DNA of 431 nt from NCBI RefSeq assembly GCF_003334765.1, contig NZ_QOWT01000124.1; one strand, written 5' to 3'. Below are positions 31 to 73 of the stretch, piece after piece. Within the stretch, counting starts at the first letter, position 1. The number at the start of each line of letters is the position of its first letter. Position numbers and translations under genes: made by a program. The stretch comes from Escherichia coli (lineage in GTDB: Bacteria; Pseudomonadota; Gammaproteobacteria; Enterobacterales; Enterobacteriaceae). The notes beneath the pieces were generated by a model. That model saw only the letters and a program-made list of their open reading frames with translations. It had not been told where the DNA came from and ran no database searches.

Positions 31-37
31 AATCAAT

Positions 38-73
38 GCCTGATGCGACGCTGTCGCGTCTTATCAGGCCTAC
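38..73 (-). repeat. REP element, Z2-like type, with 3' CTAC on the + strand (GTAG at 5' on the - strand)
   Basis: gcctgat-gc-gacgc-tgtc-gcgtc-tt-atcaggc-ctac: 7-bp outer stem (38-44 with 63-69), 2x2 internal loop, 5-bp inner stem (47-51 with 56-60), 4-nt loop, then CTAC (70-73). Near match to the Z2 palindromic-unit consensus GCCTGATGCGACGCTGGCGCGTCTTATCAGGCCTAC as I recall it. Confidence 0.85.

Follow-up and report, generated by a model that had tools for sequence, protein, structure and literature searches.

Results

A BIME-2 array between rhaA and rhaD

The DNA analysed here is a stretch of 431 nt (the window; position 1 is its first letter), whose best match in complete E. coli genomes is the rhaA-rhaD intergenic region (99.5% identity). 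An exact match to the window was found in none of the complete E. coli genomes of the collection. The rhaBAD mRNA corresponds to the minus strand of the window. Tandem Repeats Finder reported one array over positions 1-431, with a period of 92, 4.7 copies, 100% matches and no indels. The array and the parts of its unit are as follows.

1-431: BIME-2 array; the 92-bp unit consists of a y REP, a 7-nt linker, a z2 REP and a 15-nt linker
89-122, 181-214, 273-306, 365-398 and, partial, 1-30 (+ strand): y REP in GTAG-first orientation, GTAGGCCGGATAAGGCACTTGTGCCGCATCCGGC
31-37, 123-129, 215-221, 307-313, 399-405 (+ strand): 7-nt linker AATCAAT, joining y and z2 at their non-GTAG ends
38-73, 130-165, 222-257, 314-349 and, partial, 406-431 (+ strand): z2 REP in inverted orientation, ending in CTAC, GCCTGATGCGACGCTGTCGCGTCTTATCAGGCCTAC
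74-88, 166-180, 258-272, 350-364 (+ strand): 15-nt linker AACTATTGCCGACCT, between CTAC and GTAG

This arrangement is that of a BIME-2: y REPs (GTAGGCCGGAT..) alternate with inverted 36-nt z2 REPs (..GCCTGATGCGACGCTGTCGCGTCTTATCAGGCCTAC), the linkers measure 7 and 15 nt, the number of tandem copies is variable and the position is extragenic (rhaA-rhaD). An earlier note on this DNA, made from the sequence alone, had likewise called the repeat a BIME-2, which is borne out by the supplement of PMC6379681, where the rhaA-rhaD array of K-12 is listed in this class. The K-12 array, whose linkers lie within NC_000913.3 4,094,273-4,094,722, shares with the window the y and z2 REPs, the AATCAAT linker, the 15-nt AACTATTGCCGACCT linker and the 92-bp period, but it has four junctions and a few substitutions; in the window, 4.7 or more units are identical without exception. 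The linker of 7 nt is probably of the 's' type and not an 'S' motif. In REP325, the same position is filled by a 13-nt linker, which was named 'l' by Qian et al. (PMC4550694).

An IHF-like 13-mer spans the y/z2 junction

The earlier note had described a one-mismatch match to the IHF consensus, with TG for TT, starting at positions 31, 123, 215, 307 and 399. A pattern search returned the same five copies.

31-43, 123-135, 215-227, 307-319, 399-411 (+ strand): IHF-like 13-mer AATCAATGCCTGA

In this search, each copy of AATCAATGCCTGA showed exactly one mismatch to the consensus WATCAANNNNTTR, so that 12 of the 13 positions match and TGA stands in place of TTR. The mismatch of the first copy is G42, where TTR has its central T. 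On the minus strand of the window, the same search gave no match to WATCAANNNNTTR. The 13-mer spans the junction of the non-GTAG ends of the y and z2 REPs, across the 7-nt linker (31-37), and its positions 8-13 (window positions 38-43) lie already within the z2 REP.

The earlier note had pointed out that the motif recurs in every unit. This recurrence adds no weight: the five copies of the 13-mer lie in perfect repeats (100% identity) of one 92-bp unit, present 4.7 times, so that they count as one event and are not independent evidence. Shuffling of the whole window yielded five or more matches in 0 of 200 shuffles, a result that reflects the tandem repeat only. When a single 92-bp unit was shuffled with its dinucleotides preserved, a match with at most one mismatch on either strand was present in 3.5% of 20,000 shuffles (P = 0.035). 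Over 1.18 Mb of enteric DNA, one-mismatch matches occurred at 0.95 per kb and exact matches at 0.067 per kb. The match of the 13-mer is real, yet statistically unremarkable.

The mismatched half of the 13-mer coincides with the z2 stem and a TnpA(REP) motif

G42 is base 5 of the z2 REP and, according to folding, pairs with C65 in the z2 stem. Motif positions 8-13 (GCCTGA) belong to this stem both when the y and z2 REPs fold into one long hairpin and when they fold into two separate hairpins. The same bases are relevant to TnpA(REP), the REP-associated transposase, which cuts single-stranded BIMEs at TGCC|TGAT, a motif that is present in z1 and z2 but absent from y and whose central C|T is indispensable (PMC3333891). 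Comparison with the motifs of that study gave the following matches.

37-44, 129-136, 221-228, 313-320, 405-412 (+ strand): TGCC|TGAT, match to the TnpA(REP) 'iREP type I' motif, predicted cut at 40/41 in the first copy
67-74, 159-166, 251-258, 343-350 (+ strand): GGCC|TACA, match to the TnpA(REP) 'iREP type II' motif, inside CTAC

TGCC|TGAT overlaps positions 7-13 of the 13-mer and is made up of the last linker base, T, and of REP stem. An iREP type I site of TnpA(REP) (RAYT) consists of TGCC|TGAT(A) 5' of a z-type inverted REP, and the enzyme also needs a GTAG-bearing REP nearby on that strand. The window offers both: TGCC|TGAT matches exactly at 37-44 and in four repeats, and the adjoining y REP, which starts with GTAG, is on the same strand. 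Judged by this sequence context, we infer that TnpA(REP) may use TGCC|TGAT at rhaA-rhaD. Since G42 and positions 8-13 are part of the REP stem and of TGCC|TGAT, the part of the 13-mer that departs from the IHF consensus is the part that is constrained by REP identity.

The interior of the y/z2 linker is free to vary

At the same junction in E. albertii, Citrobacter, Pseudocitrobacter and other enteric loci, 50 distinct linkers were found, mostly of 7 or 13-14 nt. Their first base is A in 42 of the 50 and their last base T in 39, and the interior varies freely. A linker within one mismatch of the IHF consensus was seen in only 3 of 54 locus-linker pairs, namely AATCAAT at two non-rha loci of E. 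albertii and AATCAAC at one locus. With A1, T7 and GCCTGA given by the architecture, the resemblance to IHF therefore reduces to five free bases, ATCAA.

The locus with AATCAAC lies in E. albertii (L009, 4780-5260) and consists of a 91-bp tandem BIME-2 array, in which this sister linker occurs together with a related 14-nt linker, AGCCGTTGCCGAAC. The array illustrates a linker subfamily spreading together with its REPs.

The number of 13-mers at rhaA-rhaD differs between strains

A query made of the rhaD end, the array and the rhaA start was compared with 5,426 complete E. coli genomes, and the spans that it covered differed between genomes in steps of 92 bp. Correspondingly, spacers of 82, 174, 266, 358, 450 and 634 bp were observed (loci L245, L246, L247, L003 and L001). 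In the sequences that were read directly, the 13-mer occurs at rhaA-rhaD not at all in ACN001 and O104:H4, once in BL21, four times in K-12 and six times in FG31-1. The ACN001 spacer, of 82 bp, contains a lone y REP. Query coverage stayed below 80% in 2,090 of the 5,426 genomes, as it did in three zero-copy strains that were read in sequence, and about 38% of complete E. coli genomes thus appear to lack the 13-mer at this locus and to have only the terminal lone y REP. A motif that roughly 38% of the strains lack, and whose number differs among the others, is no fixed regulatory site of the rha operon.

The IHF site of BIME-1 lies at the opposite junction

Unlike BIME-2 linkers, which differ in both length and sequence, the L linker of BIME-1 is conserved and bears an IHF site (PMC3333891). 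Using the ends of the y and z1 REPs as anchors, a scan of metagenomes recovered 128 BIME-1 linkers, 70 of them distinct; the L linkers are about 35 nt long, with the consensus AAAA..GTGCAAATTCAATATATTGCAG. The contrast drawn in the earlier note, an IHF site in the long linker of BIME-1 and generally none in BIME-2, agrees with both the published account and these recovered linkers. The 62 distinct L linkers that were aligned all have A5, T11 and G13; C4 is found in 61 of them, and so is T at position 12, where G never occurs. At position 2 the L linkers have T and the textbook consensus has A. The authentic BIME-1 site, ATTCAATATATTG, hence also has one mismatch to the textbook consensus, at position 2, and keeps CAA....TTG; the position at which it is mismatched is a tolerant one. 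As even the authentic BIME-1 site departs from the consensus at one position, one mismatch alone cannot exclude IHF binding.

The L linker sits between ...CCGGCCTAC and GTAGGCCTGAT... (the CTAC..GTAG junction), and the candidate sits at the opposite junction, ...GCATCCGGC / GCCTGATGC.... A head-to-head search for L-type linkers at the GCATCCGGC..GCCTGATGC junction found none, and it was this outcome that revealed the location of L at the other junction. The position equivalent to L is filled in the window by the 15-nt linker AACTATTGCCGACCT (74-88). Because L occupies the other junction, the candidate is not its positional homologue, which argues against a remnant. The window also differs from BIME-1, RIB and RIP elements in that its inverted REP is z2 and not z1, its unit is tandem and not single-copy, and it contains no L-like sequence: the best score of a 29-column L matrix in the window was -22 bits, compared to an L median of 37. 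The z REP beside L in BIME-1 is of the shorter form GTAGGCCTGATAAGCGTAG...

What the candidate and the L linker of BIME-1, RIB and RIP have in common is that a linker between inverted REPs contains TCAA. L, however, is about 35 nt long and A+T-rich (..TGCAAATTCAATATATTGCAG..), has an almost invariant TTG and pairs y with z1 across CTAC..GTAG, whereas the candidate combines a 7-nt linker with REP stem, is without the central T of TTR and occupies the other junction. As a separate observation, the 15-nt linker AACTATTGCCGACCT (74-88 and its repeats) and the 3' half of the BIME-1 IHF core (ATATATTGCA) have TATTGC in common; AACTATTGCCGACCT has no CAA half. Should the unit contain a remnant of L at all, the AACTATTGCCGACCT linker would, by its sequence position, be the correctly placed candidate.

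Further elements of an IHF site are missing around the 13-mer

IHF prefers a canonical site over random DNA about 2,500-fold (PMC1874591). Out of the four recognised elements of such a site (as given in PMC1874591), WATCAA is the only one present here. The core is incomplete, with the central T of TTR being G in AATCAATGCCTGA, and there is no intact TTR, as the window reads TGA. At the lambda H' site, changing the central T of TTR to A lowers the affinity for IHF about 100-250-fold, because the over-twisting that is needed for the salt-bridge network is prevented (bioRxiv 10.1101/382655); this documented loss concerns T-to-A, and the window carries G. The 19 bp upstream of WATCAA, which correspond to the region that holds the A-tract and the second kink in H', are the GC-rich right arm of the y REP and contain no A-tract. 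The step 9 bp upstream of the AA kink is CC. A footprint-sized stretch of 35 bp around the 13-mer has 43% A+T.

A weight matrix was built from the 62 BIME-1 L linkers. It is family-specific and penalises TTA. On this matrix the candidate scored -8.7 bits, while the L linkers had a median of 22.7 and a lowest score of 6.3, a difference that has to be read with the narrowness of the matrix in mind; in enteric DNA, the candidate's score was reached or exceeded at about 23 positions in every kb. The matrix detects lambda H', but the two other exact matches in attP, which both end in TTA, come out with low ranks. As it penalises two of the three exact attP sites in this way, the matrix is too narrow and the score of -8.7 bits overstates the case against IHF. 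The three lambda attP sites resemble the candidate in the WATCAA hexamer; in contrast to the candidate, with its TGA and GC-rich flanks, H' and the two other 13-mers are exact consensus sequences in A+T-rich DNA, and H' has an A-tract. These two other 13-mers are presumably H1 and H2.

With respect to chromatin immunoprecipitation, sequencing reads within a perfect repeat map ambiguously. The main text of an IHF ChIP-seq paper (PMC3333857) names neither REP/BIME nor rha. A Dps ChIP supplement (PMC5553809) has a Dps peak at the rhaD edge only and nothing on IHF.

Gyrase cleavage sites probably map to the y REP

In the K-12 array, gyrase cleavage sites are listed at 3543204, 3543296 and 3543387 (DY330 coordinates), 92 and 91 bp apart (PMC6379681 supplement). 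Assuming that the listed 401-bp interval is the 402-bp REP array, these sites map to the base of the y REP (GTAGGCC|GGAT; about positions 1416, 1507 and 1599 of the K-12 locus L003) and not to the linker, from which they are about 28-34 bp away, with an uncertainty of 1-2 bp. Gyrase cuts y REPs preferentially, and its cleavage sites are slightly under-represented at IHF sites genome-wide (PMC6379681).

The linker is predicted to be a loop or spacer in folded single strands

Both single strands of the window fold far more stably than shuffled sequences (z -5.8 to -6.8). Little energy separates the long y:z2 hairpin (-42.4 kcal/mol), whose apical loop is ATCAA, from the form with two REP hairpins (-41.0 kcal/mol). 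For the whole window, the predicted ensemble leaves the inner ATCAA unpaired (p about 0.99) on both strands in every copy but the one that, on each strand, is truncated by the end of the window; the A and T at the ends of the linker are able to pair. An inverted-repeat finder with a 9-nt seed reported nothing in the window because the REP stems are interrupted, and the hairpins were instead revealed by folding.

The Rfam model naRNA4 (RF02564) matches each complete unit on the + strand (92-162, 184-254, 276-346) with 76.6 bits, above its gathering score (59.5). For the minus strand, in the sense of the rhaBAD mRNA, the score is 53.2 bits and so stays under gathering. As in the naRNA4 / REP325 unit, a y hairpin is followed by a linker and a z2 hairpin; unlike in the window with its 7 nt, the REP325 linker has 13 unrelated nucleotides, the locus is another one, and the sense strand of the model is antisense to the rhaBAD mRNA. 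naRNA4 binds HU and its antisense works too, indicating that structure matters and not sequence (PMC4550694). Going by the strand scores, a naRNA4-like RNA at rhaA-rhaD would need antisense transcription or an active antisense form.

Discussion

Our findings make it very probable that the 13-mer is a chance look-alike of an IHF site, formed by the 7-nt spacer of a BIME-2 and the first six bases of the z2 REP, and that it does not work as an IHF site. The 13-mer would then be a composite of the AATCAAT linker and the GCCTGA of the adjacent z2 hairpin, with no unity of its own. The architecture sets the first A and the last T of the linker and all of GCCTGA, leaving ATCAA as the only free spacer, which equals the hexamer core of IHF by what would be a coincidence of about five bases. 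In single-stranded DNA or RNA, ATCAA would serve as the apical loop of the y:z2 hairpin or as the spacer between two REP hairpins. The 13-mer recurs because the unit was amplified in tandem. The anatomy of the array, the variability of the linker, the different position of the BIME-1 linker, the base rate and the copy-number polymorphism are direct observations. Specific binding of IHF to the 13-mer is not to be expected, and we infer that it is absent. The earlier note had left the choice between a degenerate remnant and chance; the evidence favours chance, and the remnant loses ground with the L linker being at the opposite junction.

The copies might still be weak but real IHF sites, so that the tandem array would recruit several IHF dimers and thereby bend the rhaA-rhaD spacer or compete with gyrase. 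WATCAA, T11 and the purine at position 13 are intact, the BIME-1 site that IHF does use is a one-mismatch match as well, and the P value of 0.035 for one unit is nominally low. DNA flexibility may make up for missing elements of the consensus (PMC1874591), and at least five copies could add avidity. Against this stand the loss of the central T of TTR, a position at which T-to-A is so costly in H' (100-250-fold; bioRxiv 10.1101/382655), the GC-rich context without an A-tract, and a linker that is not conserved across BIME-2 loci and a motif that a large share of E. coli strains lacks at the locus. In addition, the spacing of 92 bp amounts to 8.76 helical turns, so that the copies are out of phase, and the array is cleaved by gyrase, although gyrase sites are slightly under-represented at IHF sites (PMC6379681). 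Taken together, we regard weak IHF sites as improbable. Even less credit is due to descent from BIME-1, in which the 13-mer would be the decayed descendant of the IHF site of an L linker. The L core does contain AATTCAAT, which resembles AATCAAT, and linkers could be reshuffled by TnpA(REP), which in vitro can recombine linker with iREP sites (PMC3333891). But the candidate joins the REP ends opposite to those (CTAC and GTAG) that flank L, its 3' half belongs to a REP stem and not to the linker, and other linkers at the candidate's junction contain no L-like sequence.

A different kind of explanation is that the IHF relative HU, or another DNABII protein, binds the array in a structure-dependent manner, with the linker being the spacer of a naRNA4-like RNA or a cruciform and its sequence being irrelevant. 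The complete + strand units pass the naRNA4 gathering score, naRNA4, whose antisense is active as well, binds HU, and the folds are far more stable than those of shuffles. Yet this says nothing on the IHF-like sequence itself, the linker of naRNA4 is a different, 13-nt sequence, and the known transcript, rhaBAD, is the minus strand, which remains under gathering. As an account of the 13-mer we consider it very unlikely. Equally slim is the chance that BIME-2 linkers of the type AATCAA(T/C) are arrays of weak DNABII (IHF or HU) sites at the tip of a y:z2 cruciform, the strain-variable number of which would tune topology or the rhaA:rhaD expression ratio.

As a chance look-alike, the 13-mer is explained by the BIME-2 architecture and the known TnpA(REP) motif, and this is already known biology. 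If IHF bound BIME-2 linkers, the long-standing split between BIME-1 for IHF and BIME-2 for gyrase would blur; the evidence points the opposite way. Since the motif is accounted for by the architecture and the TnpA(REP) cleavage motif, the useful outcome is a clean negative. It also carries a caution: one-mismatch matches to the consensus occur about once per kb, and recurrence in a perfect tandem repeat is no replication.

Other observations on the array

The differences between the window and its best-matching genomes sit in the y loop (cactcgtg versus cacttgtg). The source array has more identical units than any other array that was read, a surplus that suggests, at the level of sequence, recent amplification or conversion. 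In the second unit of K-12 (locus L003, 1410-1443), one REP, GTAGGCCTGATAAGGCACTTGTGCCGCATCCGGC, is a hybrid: its left arm bears a z-type T, and both its loop and its right arm are y-type, a pattern consistent with recombination between neighbouring REPs. In the spacer of E. coli O104:H4 (locus L247, about 320-500), the place of the BIME-2 units is taken by a different, GC-rich insert; it measures about 160 bp, contains long inverted repeats (..CCCTCTCCCCGTAGGGGCGAGGGG.. / ..CCCTCGCCCTTTCAGGGAGAGGGCCGGGGTGAGGG..) and probably represents another small repeat family.
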